NCBI GenBank assembly: GCA_951812325.1
Contig: OX638294.1
Coordinates: 1,138,527-1,202,526, forward strand
DNA: 64,000 nucleotides
Source: an uncultured Thermoanaerobaculia bacterium
GTDB taxonomy: Bacteria; Acidobacteriota; Thermoanaerobaculia; Multivoradales; Multivoraceae
Direction of reading: 5' to 3'
Positions 5,829 to 52,067 of this stretch are shown here, in pieces. Below the pieces are notes generated by a model, which was not told where the DNA came from, did not search any database, and saw only the letters and a program-made list of their open reading frames with translations. Numbering within the stretch: position 1 is the first letter of the stretch; each line of letters opens with the position of its first letter. The translations under genes were made by a program, and so were the position numbers.

Positions 5829-5969
5829 ACTCCTCTTTCGGCGAAACGCCGAGTTGTCTGAACGGAAGGAAGGTGAACCCTGTCACCTTAGGCGCACGGG
5901 GTCAACCCCAAGCGGTCCGCCCTGCCACGGGCTGCCAGGGTGCGACGAGCGTAACGCACCCTGTCGGCC

Positions 5970-9128: not shown

Positions 9129-9305
9129 GCCTCGTGCCCAAACCGGGACTCCCCGGCGTCCTCGCCAGCGCGAAACCAGCCTCGTGCCCGGGCGCGCCGT
9201 CGTCCGCGCCAGCGCGAAACCAGCCTCGTGCCCGGGCGCGCCGCCTCCCTCGCCGGCGCCAACTAGCCAGCCTCGTGCCCAAACCGGGCGCCCCGGCGTG
9301 CCATC
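9129..9305. repeat. Four imperfect tandem repeats (about 44-50 bp) beginning GCCTCGTGCCC, in the fabF/SRPBCC convergent intergenic region
   Basis: Units start near 9129, 9179, 9223 and 9270, each GCCTCGTGCCC(A/G)..GCGCGAAACCA-like. Seen directly in the sequence. Confidence 0.7.
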
Positions 9306-19025: not shown

Positions 19026-19110
19026 ACGCGCCAGGCAGCCGCTCCAGACGGGTGGCAGTCCGGGACCGCTCTCGCCTCGATTCGCGGGCTCTTGCCACGG
19101 GCTGCCTAAG

Positions 19111-21077
19111 CCGAAGTTCTTGAGCTTCTGCGGCCCCGTGATGGTCGATAGTCGTTGCCAGGCTTGGGTTTGCGGGTTGTTGGCCGGTCGTTCGGGGGCG
19201 CATATCGTAGCCATGTAAAAATGAGAGAAGAGGTAGACAGTCACGACGATCTAGAGTACAATGCGAAGCCATGTACATCGAGAGCATACGCAACCGGAAC
19301 TCGCCGCCTGCCGTCCTGCTTCGAGAGTCCTACCGCGAGCACGGCAAGGTCAAGAAGCGCACACTCGCCAACCTCTCCAAGTGGCCGGACCATCTCGTCG
19401 AGGGGCTGAGGACCCTCCTCAGGGGCGGCGTCGCACTGCCGTCTCTCGATGCCGCCTTCGACATCGTCCGCGCCAGACCGCATGGACACGTTGCCGCCAC
19501 GCTCGGCGCCGCCAGACGGGTCGGTATCGAGCCCTTGCTCGACCGGAGGCGGTCGAGACAACGCAGCCTCGCGACCGCGATGATCGCCGCGCGCATCCTC
19601 GATCCCCGGTCCAAACTCGCGACCGCGCGAGGACTCGCGTCCGAAACGATCACTTCGACCCTCGGTGAAGAACTCGGTGTCGAGGAGGCGTCGGCCAGCG
19701 AGCTCTACGAGGCGATGGACTGGCTGCTCAAGCGGCAACCGCGAATCGAGCGGCGCCTGGCCAAGCGCCACCTCGAGGAAGGAGCCCTGGTCCTCTGCGA
19801 CCTGACCTCGGTCTACTTCGAGGGCTCGTCCTGCGAGCTTGCCGTGCACGGGTACTCCAGAGACCGCAAACGGGGCAAGGTGCAGATCACCTTCGGCCTG
19901 CTCTGCAACCAGGACGGCTGCCCCGTGGGGGTCGAAGTCTTCTCGGGCAATACCGCGGACCCCTCGACAGTGGCCGCGCAGGTGCACAAGCTCAAGGAAC
20001 GCTTCTCGCTGGACCGGGTGGTCATGGTCGGCGACCGCGGCATGATCACCGATGCGCGCATCAGGGAGGACCTCGACCCCTCCGGACTCACGTGGATCAG
20101 CGCCTTGCGGGCGCCGGCGATCCGCTCCCTGGCCGAACAGGGCCACCTGCAGCTGTCTCTCTTCGACGAGAGAGGCCTCGCCGAGATCAGCGCTCCGGAG
20201 CTCTTCCCCTCAGAGCGGCTGATCGCGTGCAGGAACCCCCTGCTGGCCGACGAACGCGCCCGCAAGCGCCAGGAACTGCTCTCCTCCACCGAGGTCCAGC
20301 TCGAAGCCATCGTCAAGGCCACACGGCGCCAGAAGAACCCCTTGCGCGGCAAGGTCAAGATCGCCGCACGCGCCACGCGCGCCCTCGACCGCTTCAAGGT
20401 CGCAAAGCACTTCGAAACCGAGATCGAGGACGACAGCTTCAGCTATCGCCGCAATCAGGCACGCATCGACGAGGAAGCCGCACTCGACGGCTTCTACATC
20501 ATCCGCACCAACGTCCCCGAGGACCAACTGACCGCGGCCGATGCCGTGCGCTCCTACAAGAGCCTCAGCCGCGTCGAACGCGCCTTCAGGAGCCTGAAGA
20601 GCGTCGACCTCAAGGTGCGGCCCATCTACCATCGACTCGACGACCGGGTACGCGCCCATGTCTTCCTGTGCATGCTCGCCTACTACGTCGAGTGGCACAT
20701 GAGGCGCGCACTCGCACCCCTGCTCTTCGACGACGAAGACCACGACCACAACACCCGATCACCCGTCCTGCCCGCCCGCAGATCGGCCACCGCCATGGCC
20801 AAGGTCAACTCAAGGCGAACCACCCACGGATTCCCCGTACACAGCTTCCAGACACTCCTCGCCGACCTCGCCACGCTCACACGCAACCGGGTCCGAATCC
20901 AGCAAGCCGGCGACTCCACTGCCGATCTGCTGGCCACGCCAACACCTCTTCAGAACCAGGCCCTCAAACTCCTGGGCGTGAAACCCTGAGGACACGTACC
21001 CAGTAGGCTGCAACCCCAAATCGACGAAAAACCCCACCACTACAGGGGATTCCTCGATTCCGCGCCGAGAACTTCGG
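19111..21077 (+). mobile_element. IS1634-family (IS4 superfamily) insertion sequence, about 1.96 kb, with imperfect terminal inverted repeats and a target-site duplication
   Basis: Left end CCGAAGTTCTTGAGC and right end GCCGAGAACTTCGG (reverse complement CCGAAGTTCTCGGC) are flanked by a duplicated CCTAAG / GCCTAAGCC (6-9 bp; the exact boundary is ambiguous). The uninterrupted target GGCGGCCTAAGCCGGAATCAGGTCT is present in the paralogous locus at about 26310-26336. Confidence 0.8.
19271..20989 (+). CDS. IS1634-family DDE transposase
   Basis: 572 aa. MYIESIRNRNSPPAVLLRESYREHGKVKKRTLANLSKWPDHLVEGLR is the hallmark N-terminus of IS1634/IS1549-type transposases. The DDE region is downstream. Confidence 0.9.
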   Translation: MYIESIRNRNSPPAVLLRESYREHGKVKKRTLANLSKWPDHLVEGLRTLLRGGVALPSLDAAFDIVRARPHGHVAATLGAARRVGIEPLLDRRRSRQRSLATAMIAARILDPRSKLATARGLASETITSTLGEELGVEEASASELYEAMDWLLKRQPRIERRLAKRHLEEGALVLCDLTSVYFEGSSCELAVHGYSRDRKRGKVQITFGLLCNQDGCPVGVEVFSGNTADPSTVAAQVHKLKERFSLDRVVMVGDRGMITDARIREDLDPSGLTWISALRAPAIRSLAEQGHLQLSLFDERGLAEISAPELFPSERLIACRNPLLADERARKRQELLSSTEVQLEAIVKATRRQKNPLRGKVKIAARATRALDRFKVAKHFETEIEDDSFSYRRNQARIDEEAALDGFYIIRTNVPEDQLTAADAVRSYKSLSRVERAFRSLKSVDLKVRPIYHRLDDRVRAHVFLCMLAYYVEWHMRRALAPLLFDDEDHDHNTRSPVLPARRSATAMAKVNSRRTTHGFPVHSFQTLLADLATLTRNRVRIQQAGDSTADLLATPTPLQNQALKLLGVKP

Positions 21078-21089
21078 CCTAAGCCGGAA

Positions 21090-21914
21090 TCAGGTCTGGA
21101 CCATCGTCTCCAGGTAGACGCCCTCGAGATCCGCCTGATCCAGGGCCTCCCGATCCAGGATGCGCTCCATCCTGCCCTTGCGCATGATGCCGACCCGGTC
21201 GCAGAGACTCTGCGCCCGGAGCAGGTCGTGGGTGCAGATCAGGATCGCGGCGCCGTCGCAACGCATCCCGTCCAGCAGGGTCAAAAGGTCCGCTGCCGCC
21301 TTCGGATCGAGACCTGACGTGGGTTCGTCCAGGAGAATCGCGGGCGCGCTGCGAATCACCGCCACCGCCAGACCGACACGCTGACGCATGCCCTTCGAGA
21401 ACCGGTCGACGCGCCGATCAAGGACATCCTCGGCCAGCCCCACACGAAGAAGCGCCTCGCGAACGCGGTCCCTGGTCGGCGACACTCGCTGGCCCACCGC
21501 GCTGAAGAACTCCGCGTTCTGCACCGCGGTCAACGCCGGGTAGAGGGCCACGTTCTCGGGAATGAGGTCGAGGCGGCGCTTTGCTCTGCGAGGCTCGCGG
21601 GCGACCTCGATCCCGTCGATCAGGGCGCGGCCACCCGTGGGTCGGATGAAGTCGAGGAACATGTTGATCGTCGTCGTCTTGCCGGCGCCGTTCGGCCCCA
21701 TCATGCCGAGAATCTCTCCCGGCGCCACTTCGAAATCCACGCCGTCGACGGCAAGCGTGTCGAACAGCATCATCGGTACACGCTGCTCGTATGGAACGGA
21801 AACGATCGTCGGCTCCAGCAGCACGCCTTCCTGATGGCCGCGAACGGTCTTGAGGCTGACGATCGTGCCGACGGCAGCTCCGCCCGTCTCGCGGCGCGTC
21901 CTCCCGCTCACCAA
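21090..21914 (-). CDS. Chimeric ABC transporter ATP-binding protein (copy A). The ATPase lacks its native N-terminus and is fused to a fragment of the periplasmic-protein gene; possibly a pseudogene
   Basis: From AVDGVDFEVAPGEILGMMGPNGAGKTT to the C-terminus it is identical to the ATPase at 26337-27071. Residues about 17-50 (IVSLKTVRGHQEGVLLEPTIVSVPYEQRVPMMLFD) match an internal segment of the 27068-28606 protein. Walker A/B and the signature motifs are intact. Confidence 0.6.
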   Translation of the reverse strand: MVSGRTRRETGGAAVGTIVSLKTVRGHQEGVLLEPTIVSVPYEQRVPMMLFDTLAVDGVDFEVAPGEILGMMGPNGAGKTTTINMFLDFIRPTGGRALIDGIEVAREPRRAKRRLDLIPENVALYPALTAVQNAEFFSAVGQRVSPTRDRVREALLRVGLAEDVLDRRVDRFSKGMRQRVGLAVAVIRSAPAILLDEPTSGLDPKAAADLLTLLDGMRCDGAAILICTHDLLRAQSLCDRVGIMRKGRMERILDREALDQADLEGVYLETMVQT

Positions 21915-26163: not shown

Positions 26164-26336
26164 TTGACTACAACGGTCGAGGAAGCCACGAGAAGGTCTG
26201 AGAAGAGAGTCTAGGGTCGGAGGCCTTCACCTGTCAAGTGCCAGAGCTGTCCAGCGTTCGGCGTTGCCCGGCTGCTGTTCGCTTCGTGACGAGGCCTCGA
26301 TTCGCGGACTCTTGCCGCGGGCGGCCTAAGCCGGAA

Positions 26337-27071
26337 TCAGGTCTCGACCATCGTCTCCAGGTAGACGCGCTCCAGATCCGCCTGATCCAGGGCCTCCCGA
26401 TCCAGGATGCGCTCCATCCTGCCCTTGCGCATGATGCCGACCCGGTCGCAGAGACTCTGCGCCCGGAGCAGGTCGTGGGTGCAGATCAGGATCGCGGCGC
26501 CGTCGCAACGCATCCCGTCCAGCAGGGTCAAAAGGTCCGCTGCCGCCTTCGGATCGAGACCTGACGTGGGTTCGTCCAGGAGAATCGCGGGCGCGCTGCG
26601 AATCACCGCGACCGCCAGACCGACACGCTGACGCATGCCCTTCGAGAACCGGTCGACGCGCCGATCAAGGACATCCTCGGCCAGCCCCACACGAAGAAGC
26701 GCCTCGCGAACGCGGTCCCTGGTCGGCGACACTCGCTGGCCCACCGCGCTGAAGAACTCCGCGTTCTGCACCGCGGTCAACGCCGGGTAGAGGGCCACGT
26801 TCTCGGGAATGAGGTCGAGGCGGCGCTTTGCTCTGCGAGGCTCGCGGGCGACCTCGATCCCGTCGATCAGGGCGCGGCCACCCGTGGGTCGGATGAAGTC
26901 GAGGAACATGTTGATCGTCGTCGTCTTGCCGGCGCCGTTCGGCCCCATCATGCCGAGAATCTCTCCCGGCGCCACTTCGAAATCCACGCCGTCGACGGCA
27001 AGCGTGCCGTCCTCGAACCTCTTCGTGAGTCCGATTGCCTTGATCACTGTCGACTCTCCAATGTGGGTCAG
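26337..27071 (-). CDS. ABC transporter ATP-binding protein (copy B, intact)
   Basis: IKAIGLTKRFEDGTLAVDGVDFEVAPGEILGMMGPNGAGKTT (Walker A), LSKGMRQRV signature, and ILLDEPTSGLD Walker B. The start is taken as the TTG/GTG just after the upstream gene's stop; the ORF track's longer start at 27152 overlaps that gene. Confidence 0.85.
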   Translation of the reverse strand: MTHIGESTVIKAIGLTKRFEDGTLAVDGVDFEVAPGEILGMMGPNGAGKTTTINMFLDFIRPTGGRALIDGIEVAREPRRAKRRLDLIPENVALYPALTAVQNAEFFSAVGQRVSPTRDRVREALLRVGLAEDVLDRRVDRFSKGMRQRVGLAVAVIRSAPAILLDEPTSGLDPKAAADLLTLLDGMRCDGAAILICTHDLLRAQSLCDRVGIMRKGRMERILDREALDQADLERVYLETMVET

Positions 27072-28606
27072 CGTCGGCTGAGGAGGATGCCGCCCCGGAT
27101 CAGCGCCGCGAGCAGCGCCACCACGGCAGCCAAAAGAAGCAACGCCAGCCACGGATTGCGGGCTGCCGTCACGTGAATGCGAACTGTCTTGGGATCGCTC
27201 TCCACCAGACGATCACCAGCCAGCGTGCCGACGACGATCGTCCCTTCGTAGTCCCCCAGGATCACGTCGGCGGGCGGCGCAAGCGTCACGTTGACCGCTT
27301 CGCCGGTGCCGGGGGCGAGCGCATCGAACAGCCGCGGTTCCGCTCCCACCCGCCAACCGAACGGCGCCTCGACAACGACTTCCACCTGCTCGAGATCCAG
27401 ACTGCCCGCATTGACGATCCTGACTTCGAACGAGCCGGTATCGCCGCGCAGAATCTCCTGGTAGAGGTTCGCCGCCTCGACCTCGAGCGCGGCGACACCG
27501 CGCGGAATGAGCTCCAGATCCAGCCTGCCCCCGCCTCCGGCCGCGTCACGGTCGGGCTCGAACAACACGGAGAACGGAATCGACGTGCCCGGCTGCACCG
27601 CAGCCGTCGGTCGACTCGGCAACGTCAGCGCCAGACGCAGACTGCGGCTGGTCACCCCCTCCGACAGGAACATCTGACTGAACGTCGCCTCGGTCTCGGG
27701 ATCAAAGAGCCGCGCCGCAACTTCGGGCGGAAGACCCTCAAGCCGCACTCCGTACGTCGCGTCATCGACGTCGAAGCGCTCCACCTCAAGGACGAACTCG
27801 GCCTCTTCACCCAGTTCAGCGTCCAGGGCAAGCTGAGCGGAACGCACGACCAAGGGTTCCTCGGCGCCGGATCGCTTGCCCAACAGGACCTGTCGATCGT
27901 GGGTCTGATGATTGTAGCGAAGCTCGACGAGCAACTCCTCGACATCGGCCAGAAGAAGTCCGAAGTCGACGGTGGTCGGTTCGTCGAACAGCATCATCGG
28001 TACACGCTGCTCGTATGGAACGGAAACGATCGTCGGCTCCAGCAGCACGCCTTCCCGATGACCGCGAACGGTCTTGAGGCTGACGATCACGTTCGATACG
28101 CCGGTCGGAAGCGGCAGGTCCAGCAAACCGCCCGACTGCTGCTCGACCACTTCCGCCTCGACGCCGGAGGACCAGCGCGCCACCAGCTCCAGTTCGACAC
28201 GGGCCTCGCCGTCGGGCCGCCTGTACTTCCGGGCCGCGCGCAGGACGACCTCGGGATCCGCCGCGATCATCTCCAGATAGGCTTGTGCCAGATCGAGATC
28301 CGCGAGCCTGAGCTGCGCTTTCTCCGTATCCAGCTCCGCCTCGGAGAGCAGCTCGTTCTCGAACAGCTCCTCGGCGCGACCGAGCTGCTTCTCGGCTTCC
28401 TCGTACCTGATCCGGGCAGCCGCGTACTCGAGGCCAAGCCGACCCGAAGCCTCCGTCTGACCAGGCGCCGGCCCCGCCGCCGCGACGATCAGGAGGGCGG
28501 TAGCGGCCAGGCCCGCGAAACCGTCCCGGCGCCGCCTGAACCTGGCGGGCCAGGCCGCCTGGGGCCTGGCGGTAGCGGCGGCCGTTCGATCAAGAGCGGC
28601 GGGCAT
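27068..28606 (-). CDS. Periplasmic protein with N-terminal coiled coil, beta-sandwich-like repeats and a C-terminal TM anchor (component of the transporter locus)
   Basis: About 512 aa from the MMPAALDR start. There is an N-terminal signal/TM segment, a coiled-coil stretch (EEAEKQLGRAEELFENELLSEAELDTEKAQLRLADLDLAQ), and a C-terminal hydrophobic helix (WLALLLLAAVVALLAALI). It is absent from copy A apart from the fused fragment. Confidence 0.55.
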   Translation of the reverse strand: MPAALDRTAAATARPQAAWPARFRRRRDGFAGLAATALLIVAAAGPAPGQTEASGRLGLEYAAARIRYEEAEKQLGRAEELFENELLSEAELDTEKAQLRLADLDLAQAYLEMIAADPEVVLRAARKYRRPDGEARVELELVARWSSGVEAEVVEQQSGGLLDLPLPTGVSNVIVSLKTVRGHREGVLLEPTIVSVPYEQRVPMMLFDEPTTVDFGLLLADVEELLVELRYNHQTHDRQVLLGKRSGAEEPLVVRSAQLALDAELGEEAEFVLEVERFDVDDATYGVRLEGLPPEVAARLFDPETEATFSQMFLSEGVTSRSLRLALTLPSRPTAAVQPGTSIPFSVLFEPDRDAAGGGGRLDLELIPRGVAALEVEAANLYQEILRGDTGSFEVRIVNAGSLDLEQVEVVVEAPFGWRVGAEPRLFDALAPGTGEAVNVTLAPPADVILGDYEGTIVVGTLAGDRLVESDPKTVRIHVTAARNPWLALLLLAAVVALLAALIRGGILLSRR

Positions 28607-32783: not shown

Positions 32784-34160
32784 CTACCCGGCGGACGGCG
32801 GCTCGCCCGTCAGCAGGGACCGGTCCGGCGGCCGGCAGAACCAGATCGACGCCGCGCCCAGGACCGCCAGGGCAGCGAGGGTCCAGAGCGTGCCGGCATA
32901 GGAACCCGTTCGATCCGCCGCGGCGCCGGCCAGGGCCGGCCCGAGAGCGCCGATCACGCCGATCAGGGCGAGCCGGACGCCGGTCGTGCCGACGAACGCC
33001 GCCCGCCCGAAGAACCAGCCGAACACGACGACTTCACTCGTGTAGGCCGCGCCGTAGGCAGCGCCGATCACGACCACGCAGGAATACGCGACGACCGCGG
33101 AGGTCGCCGACACGAAGACCAACAGACCGACAGCGTTGACCAGCAGGGCCAGCGCGAGGACCCGCGTCGGCGCGATGAAGTCGCCCAGCGAGCCGCTCAG
33201 CCGGCCGAACAGACTGGCGCCCACCCGGAAGCCCAGGATGCTCGACACGGCCAACGTGGTGAAGCCGAGGTCTTCCAGATGGAGGCCGCCGTGAGCGGTT
33301 ACGACTCGCCACGGCACGGTGTTCGCCGCCGTCGCGAAGGTGGCGATCCAGAACTGGGGAGTGCGCAGAGCGCGCAGGACGGCGCCCTTCGGCGCCGACT
33401 TGTCGGCCGCTTCGCCGCGGCTCCCCACCGGCCGCGCCCCTGCCCGCCGACCCGGACCGCCAAAGTCGCCGGGTGCGCCGGCCATCTGGCCGGCTTCCGC
33501 GAAGGAATGCGCCGCATCCGGACCGCCGGCCTCGACCGGCGCCAGTCCGTCGCGACGCTGGCCGATGTCGCCAGGCTGGTTGCGGATGAAGAGCACGGCG
33601 ATCACCGCGACGAACAGCGAGATCCCGGCGACGATCTGCCAGCCGACCCGCCAGTCCCACGATTCAAGGACGAGCCCGGCCGCCGGCGACCACAGAAAGC
33701 CGACGATCGCGGCGCCGGTCAGGATGATCGCCGTCGCCCGCGCCCGATACCTGCGAAACCAGAACACCGGTATCGCCTGGGCGGGCAGCAGCGTCGAGAA
33801 ACCGATCCCGATGCCGCCGACGAGCGAGTAGCCGACGTAGAGCTCGGCCGCGCTCTCCGCCTGGCTCACCAGCCAGAAGCCGCTGGCGGCGCACAGCGCG
33901 CCCGCGGTCACCGTGGCCCGGATGCCCCAGCGGCGGATGACCGCCGCCGCAACCGGACTGACCAGGCCGTAGGCGAAGGTGAACGCCCCGAACATCTGGC
34001 CGATCTGCTGGCGGGTCAGCTCCAGATCGGCGATCAGCGAGGAGGCGAAGATGCCCAGGCCGTAGTAAGCCGGGGCGATTCCCAGGCCGTAGGTCACAAA
34101 ACCCACGGCGACCATCGGCCAGCCGTAGAACCTCCGCCCTGATCCGGGCGAAACGGTCAA
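32784..34160 (-). CDS. MFS transporter
   Basis: 458 aa with a 12-TM pattern and a cytoplasmic loop in the middle. Typical MFS organisation. Confidence 0.75.
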
Positions 34161-35197
34161 ACCGCCAGGTCCCCGGCCTGGCCGGCGCCGGCGGCGGGCG
34201 GCGAAGAATCAGGGTACAGGTGGCAGGCGACGCGGGCCGGGCCGACCGCCTCGAGCAGAGGCTCCACGCGATTGCAGTGGTCGAGCGCCTTCGAACAGCG
34301 CGGGTGGAAGCGGCAGCCGGACGGCGGGTTGCGGACGCTCGGCACTTCACCGGCGATCAGGTGGTGCGCCCTCGCCGCCTCGACCACCGGATCCGGCGTC
34401 GGTACGGAGGCCAGGAGCGCCTCGGTGTACGGATGCCTCGGCCGCTCGAACAGCTCGTCCCGCGTCGCGATCTCGACGATCCGACCGAGGTACATCACCC
34501 CGACCCGGTCGCTGATGTGGCGCACGACGGACAGGTCGTGGGCGATGAACAGGTAGGTGAGACCCAGCTTCGCCTGCAGGTCCATCAGCAGGTTGAGCAC
34601 CTGCGCCTGAATCGAGACGTCGAGCGCCGACACCGCCTCGTCGCAGATCAGCAGATCCGGCTCGAGCGCCAGAGCCCGGGCGATGCCGATCCGCTGGCGC
34701 TGGCCGCCCGAGAACTGGTGCGGGTAGCGGTTGGCCATCGACGGCAGCAGGCCGACCAGGTCGAGCAGTTCCGCGACCCGCTCCCGGAAGCGGCGGCGAC
34801 TCCCCGCCACGCGGTGGACCTTGAGCGGTTCGCCGACGATCTCCCGCACCCGCATCCGCGGATTGAGCGACCCGAACGGATCCTGGAAGACCATCTGCAT
34901 CCGCCGGCGAAGCGGCCGCAGCCGGCGCTGGCTGGCCTCCGAGATGTCCTCGCCGTCGAAGACGATGCGGCCGGCCGTCGGTTCCAGCATGCGCAGGATC
35001 GCCAGCGCCGTCGTCGACTTGCCGCAACCGCTCTCCCCCACCAGGCCGAAGGTCTCGCCGCGCCTGAGATCGAACGACACCCCGTCGACCGCCTTGACGG
35101 ATCCCGTCCGCCGCCGCATCAGCACCCCTTCGGTGACCGGGAAGTGGACCTTGAGATCCTCGACGCGAAGCAGCACCCGGTTGGCGGCTGAACTCAC
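34157..35197 (-). CDS. oppF: Oligopeptide/dipeptide ABC transporter ATP-binding protein OppF/DppF-like
   Basis: [14 protein letters not shown].., Walker [18 protein letters not shown], and a C-terminal oligopeptide-ABC domain (CRFHPRC). The start is the GTG that overlaps a TGA inside repeat copy 1. The ORF track's longer N-terminus (to 35689) is frame-incompatible junk. Confidence 0.8.
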
Positions 35198-35534
35198 GGC
35201 GCGGATTCCGCCTCGTAGCCGTAACAGGCCCAGGCCCGCGAGCCGGCGGCGGCTTCGAGCGACGGCGGCGCCGCCAGGCAGCGATCGTGCGTGTACGGAC
35301 AGCGCGGCGCGAAGGCGCATCCCGCGGGCAGCGCGGCGAGGTCCGGCGGTTGACCCTCGGCGGCTGAACTCACGGCGCGGATTCCCCCTCGTAGCCGTAA
35401 CAGGCCCAGGCCCGCGAGCCGGCGGCGGCTTCGAGCGACGGCGGCGCCGCCAGGCAGCGATCGTGCGTGTAGGGACAGCGCGGCGCGAAGGCGCACCCCG
35501 CGGGCAGCGCGGCGAGGTCGGGCGGTTGACCCTC
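35183..35534. repeat. Tandem direct duplication, 2 x 176 bp (about 97% identical), spanning the oppD 3' end and the oppF start junction
   Basis: GGCGGCTGAACTCACGGCGCGGATTCC... occurs at about 35183 and again at about 35359. The copies differ at only about 5 positions. Copy 2 holds the true oppD C-terminus. Copy 1 holds a duplicate 57-aa C-terminal fragment plus the oppF GTG start. Confidence 0.85.
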
Positions 35535-36362
35535 GATCGAGTCGAGGCGGCCGCCGCATTCACCCTCCAGGCGCGGCACGGAGCGAAGCAGCCCCTGGGT
35601 GTAGGGGTGGCGCGGGTCGGCATAGAGGGCCGCCGCGGGCCCGCTCTCCACGATCCGGCCGCCGTACATGACCGCCACCCGGTCGGCATAGCGGGCGACC
35701 ACGCCGAGGTCGTGGGTGATCAGGATGAGCGCCGAATCCGCCTCCCGGGTGCGCTCCTTGAGCAGTTCCAGGATCTGCGCCTGCACCGTCACGTCGAGCG
35801 CCGTCGTCGGCTCGTCGGCGATCAGCAGGCGCGGATGGCAGGCGAGCGCCATCGCGATCATCACCCGCTGGCGCATGCCGCCCGAGAACTGGTGGGGATA
35901 GTCGCCAAGCCGCTTCGCGGCATCGGGAATGGCCACCGACTCAAGGTGTTCCACCGCCTGTTCGAGCGCCTCCCTCCGGCTGAGCCCGCGGTGCAGTCTC
36001 AGCGGCTCGGCGACCTGCCGGCCGATCGTCAGCACCGGATTGAGCGAGGACATCGGCTCCTGGAAGATCATCGCGATGCGGTTGCCCCGCACCGACCGGA
36101 TGCCGGCATCGTCGAGCGCGAGAAGGTCCTGACCCTCGAACAGGATCCTGCCGTTCTCGATTTGTCCCGGGTCGGGAATCAGCCGCAGGATGGAGAGCGC
36201 CGACACGCTCTTGCCCGAGCCGCTTTCGCCGACGATCGCCAGCGTCTCGCCCGGCGCGACCTCGAGCGACAGCGACGTCACCGCCCTGACCTTCGGCCGG
36301 TTGCCGAACCCGCCGCGGAAGGTGACGTCCAGATTCTCGATCCGGAGCAGAGGTTCCGTCAC
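35370..36362 (-). CDS. oppD: Oligopeptide/dipeptide ABC transporter ATP-binding protein OppD/DppD-like
   Basis: [38 protein letters not shown]..; C-terminal CAFAPRCPY motif. Confidence 0.85.
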
Positions 36363-36398
36363 GACGGGTCAGCCGCCCTCACCGGAAGCAGGCCGCCA

Positions 36399-36479
36399 GG
36401 CAGCCCGTGGCAGAAGTCGCGCTGCATTCGAGCGGCCAAGCATCCCGCCCGGCATCGTTGCTCCTCGGTCGAACATGGC
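36399..36479. repeat. About 80-bp conserved element (copy 1), in the oppA-oppD intergenic spacer
   Basis: GGCAGCCCGTGGCAGAAGTCGCGCTGCATTCGAGCGGCCAAGCATCCCGCCCGGCATCGTTGCTCCTCGGTCGAACATGGC is nearly identical to 40444-40524. Confidence 0.8.
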
Positions 36480-36496
36480 CGGGCGCCCCGCCGCCA

Positions 36497-38356
36497 TCAG
36501 AAGCCCATCTCCCGCTTCAACTCCTGATCGATCCAGAGCCGCGCGTAAATCGGACCGGGACGCACCGCCCCGGCCCGCAGCTCGCCGCCGTAGTTCTTCA
36601 CCCACGGCCACCAGGCGGTGTAGAGGTAGGGCACGGGCAGCCACAGGTACGGGGCCTCGTCGAGCATCTCCTTCGTGATCTGCTTGACGATCCGCTGCCG
36701 TTCGACTTCGTCCCGAGTCAGGAACATCTCGTGGATCCGGCGGTCGAGTTCCGGGTCCGACCACATCGACGGATTCCAGGTCTGTCCGGTGACGAAGTTC
36801 TTGCGCAGCGTGGTCGTCGGATTCACGTGGCCGCTGCCCATCAGGTAGCCGGGCCCGTGGGTGCGGGTGGTCATCATGGACAGGTAGGCCGCGTACTCCA
36901 TCACCTCGATCTCGATCGTCACCCCGATCCGGTCCAGGTAGCTGGCCAGCAGCGGCGCCAGCTCCATCCGCATCGAGTTGTTGGCCGACACCTGCATCCT
37001 GAAGGTGAAGCCGTCGGGGTAGCCCGCCTCGGCGAGCAGGCGGCGCGCCTTCTCGGGCTTGTACTCGAACAGTTCCTGCACGGAAGGCGGCATCGCCTCG
37101 AGCGGCTCGAAGTAGCCCTCGAACGAGGGGTGCTGCGGATAGGCGAACAGCTCGGCGTTGCCGCCGAAGAACAGGTCGACGATCTCCCGCTGGTTCACCG
37201 CCAGGTTCATCGCCCGCCGCACTCTGACGTCGTCGAACGGCGCCTGGTCGACCCGCATGACCATGAAGGTGCCGCCGGTCGAGAGCCACCGTGACCAGCG
37301 CAGTTCAGGCGTCGTCTTCTTCAGATGATCGACGGCGATCCAGCGGATGTACTCGAGGATGTCCAGCTTCCCCGTGCGAATGGCCGTCAGGTAGGTCGCC
37401 TCGTCCTTGATCGTGCGGTACGTGAGTTCGTCGATGAAGGGGATCTCGTAACTCTCCCCGCCGATCGTCGTCCGATCCCAGTAGTCCGGCCGGCGGAGGT
37501 AGGTCTGCGAGTTGCCGGCAATGAACCGCTCCAGCGTGAAGGGACCGGAACCCGTCAGGTTGCGCCAGTCCTTCGGGTCCACGTCGCCAAGTTCGCGCGG
37601 CACGATGCCGGAGAAATAGCCGTAGCCGAACCGGTAGTCCCACTCGGCGTTGAACTCGCCGAACTCGAAGACGACCGTGTGGTCGTCGCGAGCCGCCACG
37701 CGGTCGATGTGGTCGAAGTAGGTCGGGATCGCCTTCGGACTGTCCCGCTGACGCTCGAAGCTGAAGACGACGTCGTGGGCGTCGAACTCGCGCGACTTCA
37801 TCACGCCTGGCTTGTCCGGGAACATGACGCCCCGCCGAAGCCGGATCGCCAGCGTCAACGGATCTTCCCATTCCCAGCTCTCGGCCAGCTCGCCGCGAAT
37901 CGTCTCGGCGGAAAGGTACGCCTCGGAAACGAAGCGCTGGTCACCGCCCCGGACCGCCGCCTGTTTAAGGTCGCCCACGAAGAGCTGCTCGTAGAGCATC
38001 CCCGTGTCGTGGTTCTGCTTCCAGTTCCAGTCCGTCGTGTCCCACGACAGCGCCGACAGCGTGACGTAGACCGTGCCGACGTTCAGTTCGCCGCCGTAGC
38101 GGGGCGGCTCCACCGGCGCCCGGCCCGACTCGAACGCCAGGTCGGCTCCCATGTCCGTGCCGCCGGGCGGCAACGCGGAACGGGCGGGGAGCGCTTCGCC
38201 GCACCCGCCGAGCAGGAGAGCCAGGGCTGCCGCGCAGAGCAGGGGAAGGGCGGCCCCGACCTCCCCGGCCAGCCCGACAACGCCCGAGGAGCGGGCGCGC
38301 CGGCAGCGCCGGTGGTGGGTTCCGATAGCCGCCGCGGCGGCGGAAAATCCCTGCAT
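36497..38356 (-). CDS. oppA: ABC transporter substrate-binding protein, family 5 (peptide/nickel/opine type)
   Basis: 619 aa. Lipoprotein-type signal (LLLGGCGE). SBP_bac_5 architecture. Confidence 0.8.
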   Translation of the reverse strand: MQGFSAAAAAIGTHHRRCRRARSSGVVGLAGEVGAALPLLCAAALALLLGGCGEALPARSALPPGGTDMGADLAFESGRAPVEPPRYGGELNVGTVYVTLSALSWDTTDWNWKQNHDTGMLYEQLFVGDLKQAAVRGGDQRFVSEAYLSAETIRGELAESWEWEDPLTLAIRLRRGVMFPDKPGVMKSREFDAHDVVFSFERQRDSPKAIPTYFDHIDRVAARDDHTVVFEFGEFNAEWDYRFGYGYFSGIVPRELGDVDPKDWRNLTGSGPFTLERFIAGNSQTYLRRPDYWDRTTIGGESYEIPFIDELTYRTIKDEATYLTAIRTGKLDILEYIRWIAVDHLKKTTPELRWSRWLSTGGTFMVMRVDQAPFDDVRVRRAMNLAVNQREIVDLFFGGNAELFAYPQHPSFEGYFEPLEAMPPSVQELFEYKPEKARRLLAEAGYPDGFTFRMQVSANNSMRMELAPLLASYLDRIGVTIEIEVMEYAAYLSMMTTRTHGPGYLMGSGHVNPTTTLRKNFVTGQTWNPSMWSDPELDRRIHEMFLTRDEVERQRIVKQITKEMLDEAPYLWLPVPYLYTAWWPWVKNYGGELRAGAVRPGPIYARLWIDQELKREMGF

Positions 38357-38360
38357 GACG

Positions 38361-39257
38361 TCAGGTTCCTCTCATTCGGGGGTCCAGCAGGTCGCGCAAC
38401 GCATCCCCGAAGACGTTTGCCGAGTAGACCACGACGGTAAGGCAGACGCCCGGCGCCAGCGCCAGCCACGGCCCCAGGTAAAGGTAGGTGCGGCCGTCGC
38501 CGCTCAGCATGCCGCCCCAGGTCGGCGCCGGCGGCGGCACGCCGAGACCCAGAAACGAAAGCGCCGCCTCCGACAGGATGACGGCGCCGACCCGGGTCGT
38601 GAACAGGACGATGACGACCGGCATCACGTTGGGCAGGATGTGACGACGCAGGATGTGGAAGGTTCCCGCGCCAATCGACTGGGCGGCGTGGGTGTAGACG
38701 TGCTCGCGCACCGAGGTCACCGCGCCGCGCACGATCCGCGATCCGGCGATGCCGTAGAGCAGCCCCAGGATGATGACGATCTGGATGATTCCCGGACCGA
38801 CCACGGACACGACGACAATCAGGAGCACGAGGTCCGGAAAGGTCATCCAGGCGTCCACCAAGCGCTGCGTCAGCATGTCGAACCAGCCGCCGAGGTAGCC
38901 CGACAGCACGCCGATCACGATCGACACGACGGTGGCCAGGGCGGCGGCGCAGAAGCCGACGATCATCGATAGCCGCGCGCCCATCAGGACCCGCGAGAAG
39001 AGGTCGCGGCCGAGGTGGTCCGTGCCGAGCAGGAACTGCGTGGACGGCGGCTCGAGCCGATGCGCCAGATCGGTCTCGTTGATGCCGTATGGCGCGAGCA
39101 CGCCGGCAAAGATCCCGCTCAGCAGGAAGATGACGAAGACGACGGCGCCGGCGGCGCCCAGCGGCTTGGTCCGGAACAGGCGGACGACAAAACGCCGCCA
39201 CCGCGACTCGCCCCGCCCCGGCAAAGGGTCGGTTCCGGCTGCGGCAACGGTGGTCAT
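38361..39257 (-). CDS. oppC: Oligopeptide ABC transporter permease OppC/DppC-like
   Basis: 298 aa with a BPD_transp_1 pattern and an N-terminal OppC-type extension. Confidence 0.85.
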   Translation of the reverse strand: MTTVAAAGTDPLPGRGESRWRRFVVRLFRTKPLGAAGAVVFVIFLLSGIFAGVLAPYGINETDLAHRLEPPSTQFLLGTDHLGRDLFSRVLMGARLSMIVGFCAAALATVVSIVIGVLSGYLGGWFDMLTQRLVDAWMTFPDLVLLIVVVSVVGPGIIQIVIILGLLYGIAGSRIVRGAVTSVREHVYTHAAQSIGAGTFHILRRHILPNVMPVVIVLFTTRVGAVILSEAALSFLGLGVPPPAPTWGGMLSGDGRTYLYLGPWLALAPGVCLTVVVYSANVFGDALRDLLDPRMRGT

Positions 39258-39264
39258 GCCGCGC

Positions 39265-40215
39265 TCATCCGTAGCGCACCTTCGGATCGAGCCAGCCGTA
39301 GCTCAGGTCGACCAGCAGGTTGATCAGGAGCACCGCGACGCCCACGACCAGGAAGACGCCCGAGATCACCGGGTAGTCCCGCTCGTAGACGCCCTCGAGC
39401 AACAGCAGCCCCATGCCGGGGATGACGAAGATCTGCTCCATCACGACGGCGCCGCCGATCAGCAGCGGCGCCTGCAGCCCGATCAACGTGACCACCGGAA
39501 TCAGCCCGTTCTTCAGCGCATGCCGGACGACGACCGCCCGCTCCCTCAGACCCTTGGCCCGCGCGGTGCGCACGTAGTCCTGACGCATCACCTCGAGCAT
39601 CATCGTCCGCGTCATCCGCATCGTGATCGCCGACATCGACAGTCCGAGCAGGATCGCCGGCACGATCAGGTGGGTCAGGTTGGCGACCGGGTCGACGAGA
39701 AACGGCGTGTACTCGAGTTCCGGCGCCCACCGCCACCAGACGGACGGAAAGACCATGACCAGGGTGCCTAGCCAGAACCCGGGGATGGCCAGCATGACGA
39801 GCGAGAACGACCGCGCCGCGTAGTCGAGAGTGGAGTCCTGCCGGGTGGCCGAGAAGATGCCGACCGGCACGGCGACGGACAACGCGACGACGAGTGCCAG
39901 GAACCCGAGTTCGAACGTCACCGGCAGCCGTTCCAGGATCTGCTCCGTCACCGGCGTGCTGCGCCAGAGCGACTGGCCGAGATCGCCCTGCAGCGCGCTG
40001 CCCGCCCAGCGAACGTACTGCGAGGCCATCGGCTGATCGAGCCCCATCGCCGCCTCGAGGGCCTCCCGATCGAGGGAGGTCGAGACGTCGTTCTGCGCCA
40101 GCATCAGATCGATCACGTCGCCGGGGATGACCCGCATCGAGACGAAGACGATCAGGCTGGCGAAGAACAGCGTCGGCGCCATTGCCAGCAGACGTCGCAG
40201 GATGTATGTCTTCAT
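39265..40215 (-). CDS. oppB: Oligopeptide ABC transporter permease OppB/DppB-like
   Basis: 316 aa: MKTYILRRLLAMAPTLFFASLIVFVSMRVIPGD is the typical OppB N-terminus. Confidence 0.85.
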   Translation of the reverse strand: MKTYILRRLLAMAPTLFFASLIVFVSMRVIPGDVIDLMLAQNDVSTSLDREALEAAMGLDQPMASQYVRWAGSALQGDLGQSLWRSTPVTEQILERLPVTFELGFLALVVALSVAVPVGIFSATRQDSTLDYAARSFSLVMLAIPGFWLGTLVMVFPSVWWRWAPELEYTPFLVDPVANLTHLIVPAILLGLSMSAITMRMTRTMMLEVMRQDYVRTARAKGLRERAVVVRHALKNGLIPVVTLIGLQAPLLIGGAVVMEQIFVIPGMGLLLLEGVYERDYPVISGVFLVVGVAVLLINLLVDLSYGWLDPKVRYG

Positions 40216-40443
40216 GTAAGGCGTCAGAGAATACAGGTGCGCGGAACCTGTCGGGGACGCCGGCGTCCCCGAAGGGCGACAGATGCCCGGTCAACCTCCG
40301 CCAACAGCGTGCTCGCCCATGCCCCAACTCCGCTTCGTCTCCGGCGCGCAGCCTCGCTGGGGGCCTTCTCCCGCGGGCGATGCGCCTGTCAACTCAAGGA
40401 CTCGGCCCCGACTTCGGAATGGCTCTGATCCTCAATGGCCCTG

Positions 40444-40524
40444 GCAGCCCGTGGCAGAAGTCGCGCTGCATTCGAGCGGCCATGCATCCCGCCCGGCATC
40501 GTTGCTCCTCGGTCGAACATGGCA
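40444..40524. repeat. About 80-bp conserved element (copy 2), in the divergent region between oppB and the Uma2 gene
   Basis: Same sequence as 36399-36479 with 1-2 mismatches. It is immediately followed by TATAAT and the ATG of the Uma2 gene. Confidence 0.8.
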
Positions 40525-49304: not shown

Positions 49305-52067
49305 CTATTCCTCGGCCTGCCGGCGCAGGTGGGGCACGATGCCGATGAGCCGTGCGACGTGGTGCTCGAACAGCGTGCCGTCGTCCGCCTCGTCCGCGTC
49401 CACGCCGACCGGGACCGCCGCCGCGGGGCCGTCCAGCAGGTCTCTGCAGACCAGCGGCGCGACGGCCGCGTTCCGCGGGCCGTCGACCCAGTACCAGCCG
49501 CCCGGCCTGGCGCCCTGGACGGACACCTCGCTGGCGATCGGATTGCCGGCGGCGTCGGTGCAGGAGTTGCTGTCCTCGCGCAGCAGCTGGACGACCAGGC
49601 CGTCATCGTTCGCCTGCAGCGTCTGCGTCGTGGTCTCGCCGCTGCAGGTGGTCCGCCACTCGACGGACTCGCCGTCGGTCGGCTTGACGACGATGCCGCC
49701 GGCGCCCCGCCAGTACGGTTTGACGTACTCGCTGCAGACCCCGTCATCGGGCTTCGGCAGGTGCGGCACGATGCCGATCAGCCGTGCGACCTCGTGTTCG
49801 AAGAACGTGCCGTTGTCCGTCACCTCCGTCTCCACGCCGGCGGGAATCGTCGCCACGGCGCCGCCCAGGTCGACTTCGGAGACCAGCGGCGCGACGGCGG
49901 CGTTCCGCGGGCCGTCGATCCAGTACCAGCCGCCGGGCTCGATGTCCGTGACCGACACCTCGCTGCGGACGGCATTCCCGTCATCGTCCGTGCACGCGCC
50001 CCGGCGCACCAGCTGGACGATCAGGCCGTCGTCGTTGGCATACAGCGTCTCCGTCGTGCGGGCGCCGCGGCAGGACATCCGGAACTTCACGGAAAGGCCG
50101 TTGGCCGGCTTGACGACGATGCCGCCGGTGCCCCGGAAGTACGGCGCCACGAACCGGTTGGGATCAAGCGGCTCCGGTTCCGGTTCGGGATCGGGGTCCG
50201 AGTCGGGATCGGAGTCGGGATCGGAGTCGGGATCGGGGTCGGGTTCCGGGGGAGGGGGACAATCGGGCGCCGGAGCCACGTCGTTGATCGTGGCCTCGGC
50301 GATCCACTTGTAGCTCCAGAGTACGTCGACCGGGCTCTTTACTTCGCTGCCGTCGGGGGTGACGTCGACCGAGTATGACTCCGTGGCCTCGACGCTGAAC
50401 GTCTCCGACCCTTCGTTGGCGCAGTCGGTGCGGGCGGCCAGCTCAATCGTCCCCGTTGTCGAGGTGAGGGAACTGCCAATCGACCCAAGCCTCACGGTGG
50501 CCGAGGTCGTGGCGGCGTAGTCTTCACTCGTGGCCGTGCCTTCCTCGGTGGCGTAGACCACCTCCAGAGGAGGCGCCCCGCTGATCTGGGGGAAAACCGA
50601 GTAGCTCACGTCGAAGCTCAGATCCGTCCCTTCGTCCCCCTGCGCGTCGTCGACGCCAAGACACGAGTAGACGCTCAGGTCGCCGTTGTTCCGCCGCGTC
50701 GTCGTGGCGGACGGCAGGTTCCCCGTGAGACTCGTCTCGCACAGGGACAGATGCTGCAGGTTGGTCAGGGTGCCGAGGCTGGAGGGAATGGCGCCGGTAA
50801 AGCCGTTCGACCCGAGGAGGAGGTGCGTGATGCCCGTGGCGGCGGTCGCGTTGTTGATGTTCCCGGTCATCTTGTTGCCGCGGAGGTTGAGCACCCTCAT
50901 GCCGGTGCTGGTGATGCTGGGGATGCCCCCGGTCAAGCTGTTGAAATGGGCCGAGATCTCTTGCAGGTTGTTGCCGGTTGGCAGGGCCGGGATGGCCCCT
51001 GTCAACTTGTTGTCGTTGACGACGAGCTGCTTCAGTTTCACTAGGGTGGACAGGGCGGGGATTTCCCCGGTCAGGTTGTTGCCGACGCCTCTCCCGTCGA
51101 ATCGGAAGTTGTTGCCCACATTGAGACGCTCCAGTCTCACGAGGGCGGACAGATCGGGGATTCCCCCGGTCAGGTTGTTGTCGTTGAGATCGACCTCCCT
51201 CAGGAAGATGATGCCGTTCAACGGCGGGATGCTCCCGGTGAACTTGTTCCTGCCGAGAGCGAGCCACGTCAGGCTGCTGACGTTGGTAATCGCTCCGATC
51301 TCCCCGGTCAGCGCGTTTCTGCTGAGATCGAGTGTCGCCAGGTCGTGGAGGCCGCTGGGATTGGGGAACTCCCCGGTCAGCTCGTTGTCGTTGAGAAGCA
51401 CATGGATCAGGGCGGTGAGGCCGCTCAACGACGGGATGGACCCGGTCAGCTCGTTGTTGTCGAGAAAGATACGCTCCAGGCTGGTCAGGGCGCTCAGATT
51501 CGGGATTTCCCCGGTCAGGGCGTTCCCACTGAGCCTGAGGTACGTCAGATTGGTCAGGTTGCTGAACGATGCGGGGATTCCCCCGGTGAACTTGTTTCTC
51601 CGGAGGTCGAGGTGCGTCAGGTTGGTCAGCGCGCCCACCCACGCCGGGATCGGCCCGGGGGTGAGGTTGTTGTAGGTGAGCCGGAGATACGTGAGTGCGT
51701 CGAGGGCGCTCAGATCGGGGAGCGTCCCCGTAATGTTGTAGCCAGGGCCGAGCGTGAGCCGGGTGACGCGGCTCCTTTCGCCGTTCATGCCGATCGATTG
51801 CCACCGATGCATGCCCCTGTTGCGCGCCCAGTTCAGGCTCGTGTTGTCGCCCGAGCCGAGAGTCAGCGCGGCCTTGAAGGCCAGCAGGGCGGTGCAGTCG
51901 GCAGCCAGCATGTCCCGCTTGGCGTTGCTCAGAGTCCTGCTCCCCACGGCCCCAATGACGGCTACGTCGCCCCTCACGCAGGTTGGCGACGTCTGGGCGT
52001 GGGACGCGCCGCCGAACAGGCCGAGCGCCAGCGCCAGGACGAGGACCTTGAGCACCAGACCCGGCAC
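49305..52067 (-). CDS. Secreted leucine-rich-repeat protein (plant-specific-type LRRs) with two tandem C-terminal repeat domains and an Asp/Pro-rich linker
   Basis: 920 aa. Signal peptide. About 17 repeats of 24 residues, LxxLxxLxLxxNxLTGxIPxxL (for example LTNLTYLRLSGNALTGEIPNLSAL). Linker PEPDPDPDSDPDSDPDSDPDPEPEPEP. Two roughly 140-aa C-terminal repeats (YFRGTGGIVVKP... and YWRGAGGIVVKP...). Confidence 0.8.
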   Translation of the reverse strand: MPGLVLKVLVLALALGLFGGASHAQTSPTCVRGDVAVIGAVGSRTLSNAKRDMLAADCTALLAFKAALTLGSGDNTSLNWARNRGMHRWQSIGMNGERSRVTRLTLGPGYNITGTLPDLSALDALTYLRLTYNNLTPGPIPAWVGALTNLTHLDLRRNKFTGGIPASFSNLTNLTYLRLSGNALTGEIPNLSALTSLERIFLDNNELTGSIPSLSGLTALIHVLLNDNELTGEFPNPSGLHDLATLDLSRNALTGEIGAITNVSSLTWLALGRNKFTGSIPPLNGIIFLREVDLNDNNLTGGIPDLSALVRLERLNVGNNFRFDGRGVGNNLTGEIPALSTLVKLKQLVVNDNKLTGAIPALPTGNNLQEISAHFNSLTGGIPSITSTGMRVLNLRGNKMTGNINNATAATGITHLLLGSNGFTGAIPSSLGTLTNLQHLSLCETSLTGNLPSATTTRRNNGDLSVYSCLGVDDAQGDEGTDLSFDVSYSVFPQISGAPPLEVVYATEEGTATSEDYAATTSATVRLGSIGSSLTSTTGTIELAARTDCANEGSETFSVEATESYSVDVTPDGSEVKSPVDVLWSYKWIAEATINDVAPAPDCPPPPEPDPDPDSDPDSDPDSDPDPEPEPEPLDPNRFVAPYFRGTGGIVVKPANGLSVKFRMSCRGARTTETLYANDDGLIVQLVRRGACTDDDGNAVRSEVSVTDIEPGGWYWIDGPRNAAVAPLVSEVDLGGAVATIPAGVETEVTDNGTFFEHEVARLIGIVPHLPKPDDGVCSEYVKPYWRGAGGIVVKPTDGESVEWRTTCSGETTTQTLQANDDGLVVQLLREDSNSCTDAAGNPIASEVSVQGARPGGWYWVDGPRNAAVAPLVCRDLLDGPAAAVPVGVDADEADDGTLFEHHVARLIGIVPHLRRQAEE
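49335..50170. repeat. Intragenic tandem duplication, 2 x about 420 bp (about 75% identical), encoding the two C-terminal repeat domains of the LRR protein
   Basis: GCAGGTGGGGCACGATGCCGATGAGCCGTGCGAC... at about 49335 and GGCAGGTGCGGCACGATGCCGATCAGCCGTGCGAC... at about 49755. Confidence 0.7.
50170..50265. repeat. 12-bp microsatellite-like repeat (GGGATCGGAGTC)n encoding the (DPDS)n linker
   Basis: GGGATCGGGGTCCGAGTCGGGATCGGAGTCGGGATCGGAGTCGGGATCGGGGTCGGGTTCCGG. Confidence 0.7.

Follow-up and report, generated by a model that had tools for sequence, protein, structure and literature searches.

Does a short tandem duplication that falls exactly on the stop/start junction of two neighbouring transporter genes separate the two in translation, or does it leave a link between them in place? 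And is such a repeat a property of the organism, or of the assembly in which it is found? Both questions are raised by a locus in the window, as we call the whole 64-kb stretch of DNA that was analysed, in which the first-pass annotation had noticed a 176-bp repeat at the place where an oppD-like gene ends and an oppF-like gene begins.

The two genes belong to an operon for an ABC importer of the peptide/nickel type, the part of which upstream of oppD spans 36497-40215 on the minus strand (Table 1). Profile searches recovered both domains of the family in each of the two products (in OppD with PF00005 at 2.7e-29 and PF08352 at 1.3e-21), and the best match of OppD in the PDB is the OppD of M. 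tuberculosis (4e-133). The best NCBIfam matches of the two ATPases are the OppD and OppF models, with scores that fall short of the curated cut-offs (374 vs 575 bits for the OppD model and 418 vs 540 bits for the OppF model), for which reason 'oppD' and 'oppF' are used here as family-level labels. The OppD product is identical to a protein (P0121) recorded on a 4.63-Mb contig of NCBI/ENA; an exact-sequence look-up of the OppF product, with either V or M as the first residue, returned no record. As regards the start of oppF, an independent gene caller applied to a second bearer of the duplication (L087) and to L088-L091, which have a single copy, settles on the same GTG, which shares 4 nt with the stop before it, and the gene callers in the relatives and in L087 set the oppF start at an NTGA overlap. 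A scan of positions 34000-36700 for promoters and terminators gave no promoter-like or terminator-like site, and no Rfam families were found within the 64-kb window.

Table 1. Features at and around the oppD/oppF junction, in the order in which they are met on the minus (coding) strand; positions are those of the window
Feature	Position	Strand	Remarks
oppB-like permease	39265-40215	-	
oppC-like permease	38361-39257	-	
family-5 solute-binding protein	within 36497-38356	-	
oppD-like ATPase	35370-36362	-	330 aa; ABC_tran and oligo_HPY; intact
upstream unit ('copy 2')	35359-35534	-	genuine oppD 3' end (54 codons + TGA) and duplicated first 15 nt of oppF
SD-like GAGGGGG	35384-35390	-	10 nt 5' of the first GTG; weak motif
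first GTGA	35370-35373	-	oppD stop overlaps start of relay ORF
relay ORF	35194-35373	-	59 codons; VSSAA (GTG + 4 oppF codons) continuing in frame into the duplicated OppD tail of 54 codons
duplication junction	35358-35359	no strand	...GTTCAGCCGCC joined to GAGGGTCAACC... on the minus strand; 1 nt of microhomology
downstream unit ('copy 1')	35183-35358	-	duplicated OppD tail (54 codons + TGA) and genuine first 15 nt of oppF
SD-like GAGGCGG	35208-35214	-	10 nt 5' of the oppF GTG; weak motif; GAGGGGG altered by a window-specific G>C at 35210
second GTGA	35194-35197	-	stop of relay ORF overlaps oppF start
oppF-like ATPase	34157-35197	-	346 aa; ABC_tran and oligo_HPY; intact
MFS transporter	32784-34160	-	last gene listed in the operon, after oppF

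A repeat search of the window returned two direct copies of 176 nt that adjoin head to tail without a spacer, and Tandem Repeats Finder, a second and independent tool, delimited the array at 35183-35535 (period 176, 2.0 copies, 97% matches, 0 indels, score 678). Compared base by base, the copies differ at four positions (plus-strand pairs 35210/35386, 35296/35472, 35320/35496 and 35344/35520) and are thus 97.7% identical, with no indels and a spacing that equals the unit length; outside the unit, the identity continues for only 1 nt. This is far beyond chance, and any other tandem repeat in the 64-kb window has a period of at most 69 nt. Both tools and the direct comparison therefore bear out what the first-pass annotation had seen, namely a tandem duplication over the oppD stop and the oppF start with copies about 97% identical. 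On the coding strand, either unit comprises the final 54 oppD codons (the earlier count had been about 57), which encode EGQPP...ESAP, together with the TGA and the initial 15 nt of oppF, i.e. the five codons GTG AGT TCA GCC GCC; that it includes the GTGA overlap had been recognised correctly. The coordinates of the two genes also fit the earlier assignment of genes to copies, in which, with the copies numbered in plus-strand order, oppD stops in copy 2 and oppF begins at the GTG in copy 1.

The microhomology at the duplication junction is so short that it speaks for an origin of the array by illegitimate recombination or by template switching, and not by unequal crossing-over of repeated sequences. 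A pair of imperfect 9-mers close to the start and the end of the unit (TCAaCCGCC and TCAgCCGCC) was considered as a substrate for recombination and rejected, as the two are spaced 162 nt apart and not 176.

The single unit is the ancestral condition. It is present in 12 of 12 close relatives (91-96% nt identity), which comprise a Thermoanaerobaculia (Acidobacteriota) MAG with TTGA in place of GTGA (L001, 91%), three loci at 95-96% identity (L081, L083 and L085) and a further set at ~95-96% from several ENA samples (L088-L095), all of the latter two groups with GTGA; no long-period tandem repeat was found in 79 distant oppD loci. The comparison with orthologous opp loci, which the first-pass annotation had recommended, thereby identifies the duplication as derived. 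Two further contigs, both of the ENA assembly ERZ18545498, carry it as well. One of them (L086, contig atg000640l, 45.9 kb), reached via its oppC product, has the identical 176-nt duplication and aligns to the window over 12.9 kb at 99.3% identity, with 61 mismatches and 19 gaps. The other (L087, contig atg000847l, 37.7 kb) was found by a protein search through P0011, an OppD variant that runs across both units; it matches the window at 98.7% identity (128 mismatches), and its sequence upstream of oppB differs from that of the window, which constitutes a structural difference. The window and both contigs have the same junction and three of the four differences between copies, all three of them synonymous, while the G>C at 35210 occurs in the window only. 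As the two contigs come from one assembly, and perhaps from the same sample or environment as the window, these are independent contigs or haplotypes and not independent samples; the junction and the copy-specific SNPs common to all three indicate that the duplication is genuine and not an artefact of assembly.

The substitutions also permit the event to be placed in time. When polarised with the outgroups, seven substitutions derived with respect to the single-copy relatives are shared by both copies, whereas the changes after the duplication number two in the upstream copy, both synonymous, and one in the downstream copy, likewise synonymous, to which a Gly>Ala replacement is added in the window only. 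The divergence between copies amounts to 1.7-2.3% across the three haplotypes. Since the relatives have a single copy and the three haplotypes have the duplication in common, the event is lineage-specific; it falls after the separation from the 96% relatives and before the three haplotypes that bear it parted. The duplication had been called recent, a term that fits in a relative sense only: it predates the divergence of these haplotypes, and its copies differ by the percentages just given. We propose that one of the two processes named above created the array in an ancestor of a few Thermoanaerobaculia-like (Acidobacteriota) strains, by which it was then inherited.

What the duplication does to the reading frames depends on the GTGA overlap and on the length of the unit. 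Relative to oppD, the frame of oppF is shifted one base ahead, and the unit length can be written as 176 = 3x58+2. Because the offset of the GTGA is combined with a unit length of 2 mod 3, the duplicated GTG comes to lie in frame with the duplicated oppD tail, and for the same reason oppD and oppF are left unchanged and a relay ORF, as we will refer to it, is inserted. The gene order after the duplication is oppD, the 59-codon ORF and oppF, connected by two identical GTGA overlaps, at each of which co-directional ORFs share 4 nt of stop and start in the manner of a coupled pair. The stop/start architecture is doubled rather than destroyed. The first-pass annotation had concluded that oppD and oppF are probably uncoupled, on the ground that 176 is not a multiple of three, but it is precisely the remainder of two that gives an in-frame ORF with a GTGA at both ends. 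Had the length of the unit been divisible by three, an N-terminally extended OppF would have been produced instead, and the third possible length class would have set the duplicated GTG in the remaining frame. The prior probability that the relay ORF would be in frame was one in three, and its being so proves nothing alone.

Between the two genes, a 121-aa 'ghost' ORF (35194-35559) had also been described. It does exist, and so does the duplicated Cys-rich OppD tail within it, but as drawn it is implausible as a gene: codons 1-62 lie over the 3' end of oppD and read it out of frame, at a locus where ~70% G+C leaves all three frames open. Its meaningful part is the 59 codons from the GTG at 35373 to the TGA at 35194. 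The relay ORF is absent from the gene calls on L086, which is weak evidence, and an exact-sequence look-up of its peptide (V or M first) returned no record.

Stop/start overlaps of 4 nt mediate coupling by termination and reinitiation, the efficiency of which depends on an upstream SD motif (PMC6728339). The duplicated GTG lies in an initiation context identical to that of ancestral oppF from about -161 to +15, i.e. for at least 160 nt upstream, and this context includes the SD-like GAGGGGG. The upstream context of the genuine oppF GTG is retained too, apart from the G>C private to the window, which is at the same time the Gly>Ala change in the relay ORF. If ancestral oppF was started in this context, the relay ORF should be initiated, the context being identical, and about as ancestral oppF was. 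We therefore envisage, on the strength of these signals, that ribosomes ending oppD would reinitiate on the relay ORF, or start on it de novo at the duplicated SD-like site, and that ribosomes having translated it would terminate at the second GTGA and reinitiate on oppF. That the relay ORF is translated, and that ribosomes reinitiate at each GTGA, we infer from sequence context; such a succession would mean that the coupling of OppD to OppF can be relayed rather than broken: it would pass through one extra step, probably with some loss, and would not be abolished. The OppF:OppD ratio would then be equal to that of the ancestor, or somewhat below it. As a by-product, a 59-aa peptide would be made in which the four-Cys [4Fe-4S] motif from the C-terminal end of OppD is complete.

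Indeed, all four ligand positions are kept in the relay ORF, where Cys19, Cys25, Cys32 and Cys50 form the pattern C-x5-C-x6-C-x17-C, which the OppD of the window carries too. They align without gaps to Cys284, Cys290, Cys297 and Cys315 of E. coli DppD (aligned region DppD 273-316), and M. tuberculosis OppD shows the same register of cysteines. In E. coli DppD these four residues are the ligands of the [4Fe-4S] cluster; mutating them disassembles DppBCDF, and the Fe-S domain is essential for the assembly of this complex (PMC12136057). The relay ORF covers positions 38-65 of the 65 positions of the oligo_HPY profile, i.e. the second half only, which makes autonomous folding of the segment doubtful.

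Most elements of the locus have well-known counterparts. Like the spontaneous tandem duplications with short junctions that are known from bacteria, the array has head-to-tail copies without a spacer, a single-copy ancestor and 1 nt of junction homology. It is unlike them in being very small (176 bp) and in lying exactly on a stop/start overlap, so that no gene is disrupted, and whereas such duplications are usually regarded as transient, this one was retained to ~2% divergence and inherited by several strains. With termination-reinitiation at ATGA/GTGA pairs (PMC6728339, PMC10666635) it has in common the NTGA overlap, found in all relatives and at both junctions here, an SD-like motif, weak here, inside the upstream ORF, and genes whose products belong to one complex, as is typical of such coupling; the difference consists in two identical overlaps in series around a 59-codon ORF, at which coupling is predicted from sequence. 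The cysteine pattern is that of the Fe-S domain of OppD and DppD (PF08352; 8z1v, E. coli DppBCDF; 8j5q, M. tuberculosis OppD; 4fwi, T. tengcongensis DppD), yet the relay ORF lacks both the nucleotide-binding domain and the first half of oligo_HPY, and cluster binding by it is putative. Finally, in short intercistronic or upstream ORFs that hand ribosomes on, the stop of the short ORF likewise overlaps the start of the next gene. In contrast to these, the relay ORF is a by-product of duplication and not a conserved regulatory leader, and no features of sensing or attenuation were seen at it, neither an Rfam match nor a terminator. The small tandem duplication, the coupled junction on which it lies, the transporter family and its Fe-S tail are all of known types, and nothing indicates a new kind of system. 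Particular to this locus are its geometry, by which parts of both neighbouring genes are combined into a relay ORF, and the inheritance of the array. It represents a small natural experiment, in which a duplication on a GTGA with a length of 2 mod 3 automatically creates a relay ORF and a detached copy of the Fe-S-binding tail.

As a whole, the locus is probably best explained by an inherited, lineage-specific 176-bp duplication with both genes intact and a relay-coupled 59-codon ORF between them, most likely a tolerated passenger with a working relay. Its effect on fitness is most likely small, and its persistence leaves room for weak selection. This long persistence sits uneasily with the term 'passenger'. 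In E. coli, the loss of tandem repeats of 100-800 bp is frequent enough to be measured readily, and repeats of this size are deleted by template switching independent of RecA. In qualitative terms, and if E. coli behaviour applies here, a strictly neutral array would, owing to this instability, be expected to collapse before three to four substitutions had accumulated. Possible reasons for the persistence are slow deletion in this organism, weak selection, or copies that were different from the start. Assays for the deletion of tandem repeats in E. coli have been described (PMC7145654).

Selection would be at work if the relay ORF were useful, be it by lowering or buffering the OppF:OppD translation ratio, or by yielding a free 59-aa [4Fe-4S]-binding mini-protein and thus a nascent gene. 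The array has been kept across three haplotypes while its copies diverged, although it should readily collapse to a single copy that works, and of the three possible frames its unit length yields the one in which the stop/start relay is preserved. The retained cluster ligands point in the same direction, as does the duplicated tail of L086 and L087, which is identical to OppD in amino acids and differs by synonymous changes only, and the domain concerned is needed for the assembly of DppBCDF in E. coli (PMC12136057). On the other hand, three to four substitutions are too few for a test of selection, and the downstream copy has one synonymous change and, in the window, one that is non-synonymous (Gly>Ala). 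It is doubtful that a segment with half of the oligo_HPY profile would fold by itself, the ORF was left uncalled on L086 and its peptide is without a record, and the array is confined to one narrow lineage, with nothing similar at 91 other loci. On balance the case for selection is slight and we consider a selected novelty unlikely, persistence being the single argument that makes us hesitate.

On a stricter version of it, the relay ORF would be a new gene that arose in a single step, is translated and is kept by selection, acting either as a free [4Fe-4S]-binding micro-protein or as a built-in attenuator that holds OppF below OppD. If true, it would explain how an intrinsically unstable 176-bp repeat survived to ~2% divergence across strains; we regard it as distinctly improbable. 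If the relay works or the peptide accumulates, the locus would show how a small ORF can arise in one step from the genes on either side of it, and it would offer a handle on the weight that the efficiency of reinitiation has in the stoichiometry of the ATPases of ABC transporters.

Functional uncoupling can also be argued on grounds other than the length of the unit, the reasoning from divisibility by three being incorrect. The relay ORF could be untranslated or poorly translated, so that ribosomes leaving oppD miss the oppF start 176 nt downstream, and oppF is initiated de novo with altered expression. No reinitiation step reaches full efficiency, and each depends on the SD motif (PMC6728339); the motifs at hand are weak, with GAGGGGG at a spacing of 10 nt and, in the window, GAGGCGG ahead of oppF. 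The exact ancestral oppF context around the duplicated GTG speaks against a failure of initiation at that very site, and we attach a low probability to uncoupling, the relay through the 59-codon ORF being our preferred reading.

The age of the array would have to be read otherwise if the duplication were young and had been born with diverged copies, two alleles having been joined in one step, e.g. by homology-facilitated illegitimate recombination with DNA of a sister strain. The three shared differences would then be no measure of age, and the tension between the instability of repeats and the divergence observed would be removed; moreover, all three are third-position differences, of the kind that segregates between strains. 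Such an origin is nonetheless hard to reconcile with the seven lineage-specific derived substitutions, every one of which is common to both copies, or with the private changes of each copy, which are absent from every sampled relative, so that no donor allele is visible. The event would still precede the split of the three haplotypes. We therefore see only a slight chance of it and retain divergence after the duplication as the preferred reading.

An assembly artefact, which the first-pass annotation had raised as a collapse or expansion and which might also consist of overlapping contig ends with strain SNPs that were joined unmerged, is conceivable in that the window stems from a metagenome-derived genome and SNPs between copies could in principle be strain variants, but it is so improbable as to be negligible, given that the identical junction and three copy-specific SNPs recur on contigs of 4.63 Mb, 45.9 kb and 37.7 kb which differ elsewhere by 61-128 substitutions, and in the case of L087 also structurally, that neither copy matches any single-copy relative, that the repeat lies deep inside all three contigs, and that an array of 352 bp is trivially bridged by long reads. 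For annotation this means that the repeat should be treated as real and both ATPases as intact, that the 121-aa ghost should not be annotated, and that the locus should be left as it is and not 'corrected' as though it were misassembled.

The contigs L086 and L087 are themselves error-prone, with fragmented genes, homopolymer indels and an additional G (+1) in a G-run of L087. The frameshifted OppD of L087 (P0011), which reads into the downstream copy, was considered as a use of the spare tail and rejected, since it probably results from this +1 G homopolymer error. The contig L087 is rich in broken genes.

In L087, a contig of ENA assembly ERZ18545498 that shares the 176-bp tandem duplication at the oppD/oppF junction, the locus at L087 6672-7025 (protein P0011) has one additional G within a GGGG stretch, in the upstream unit, and this G shifts OppD into the oppF frame. 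The shifted protein crosses the junction into the downstream unit, retains the Cys motif intact and ends on the second of the two GTGA stop/start overlaps. The extra G is probably a sequencing error, since many genes on the L087 contig are broken; P0011 nonetheless shows that the downstream 176-bp copy could serve as a spare OppD C-terminus. A frame shift of OppD was also observed in P0122 (NCBI MCE2558132.1), a partial protein of 503 aa from a single-copy relative, where it occurs shortly ahead of the Cys motif and leads straight into OppF. P0122 is an OppD-OppF fusion without the Fe-S ligands of OppD, whether through a real indel or through an assembly error.

The peptide-transporter operon is further associated with an 84-nt sequence, two copies of which, 98% identical, are present in the window.

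Location of the two copies of the 84-nt sequence at the peptide-transporter operon
Feature	Position in window	Context
84-nt copy 1	36396-36479	between binding-protein stop and oppD start
84-nt copy 2	40440-40523	upstream of oppB

Copy 1 is found in the window, in L087 and in L086 (the other duplication-bearing contig of the same assembly), and is missing from the single-copy relatives L081, L083, L085 and L001; it is a lineage-specific insertion. Copy 2 sits in a stretch exclusive to the window and L086. Read on the operon strand, the 84-nt sequence contains the motif GAGGAG-N6-ATG, and its end (TGCCACGGGCTGCC) has partial matches at window positions 5922-5939 and 19093-19107. A search of Rfam returned no match for the 84-nt sequence, which may represent a small insertion, either mobile or templated.

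A short ORF links the binding-protein gene to oppD in the window (36369-36500, minus strand) and likewise in L081, L083 and L001. Its start ATG overlaps the binding-protein TGA (TGATG), and it terminates 6 nt ahead of the GTG of oppD, except in L083, where the stop and start overlap as GTGA. The ORF comprises 43 codons in the window versus 15 in L081, because the 84-nt insertion (28 codons) lies in frame. Given the approximately 70% G+C content of this DNA, such a bridging ORF may be due to chance.

Directly upstream of oppB, L087 (1-1830) and the window (from 40375) show a strain-level structural difference: this place is taken in L087 by a VWA-domain gene, and no alignment between L087 and the window extends past 40375. 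In L092, another single-copy relative, similarity to the window covers only reference positions 1-1516, stopping within oppF, and beyond about 4016 of L092 a different gene follows, which suggests a rearranged or chimeric contig. The alignment of L095 also covers reference positions 1-1516, in this case because the retrieved L095 locus ends at 4016.

A second recent duplication in the window (21075-21864 versus 26322-27006 plus 27983-28088) comprises a 685-nt segment that is 99.4% identical between two loci and, next to it, a 106-nt segment that is 98.1% identical; the loci are 5.2 kb apart, and 976 nt are exclusive to the second. It involves two ABC ATPase genes (21090-21914 and 26337-27152), which are 99% identical across 222 aa and adjoin ABC-2 permease genes. 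Other parts of the window (50850-51750, 63311-63480 and 9153-9280) also contain repeats of coding type; they include about eight units of 69 nt (23 codons) within a large minus-strand ORF, with a leucine-rich-repeat-like periodicity, and further arrays of 39 nt x 4.4 and 44 nt x 2.8.
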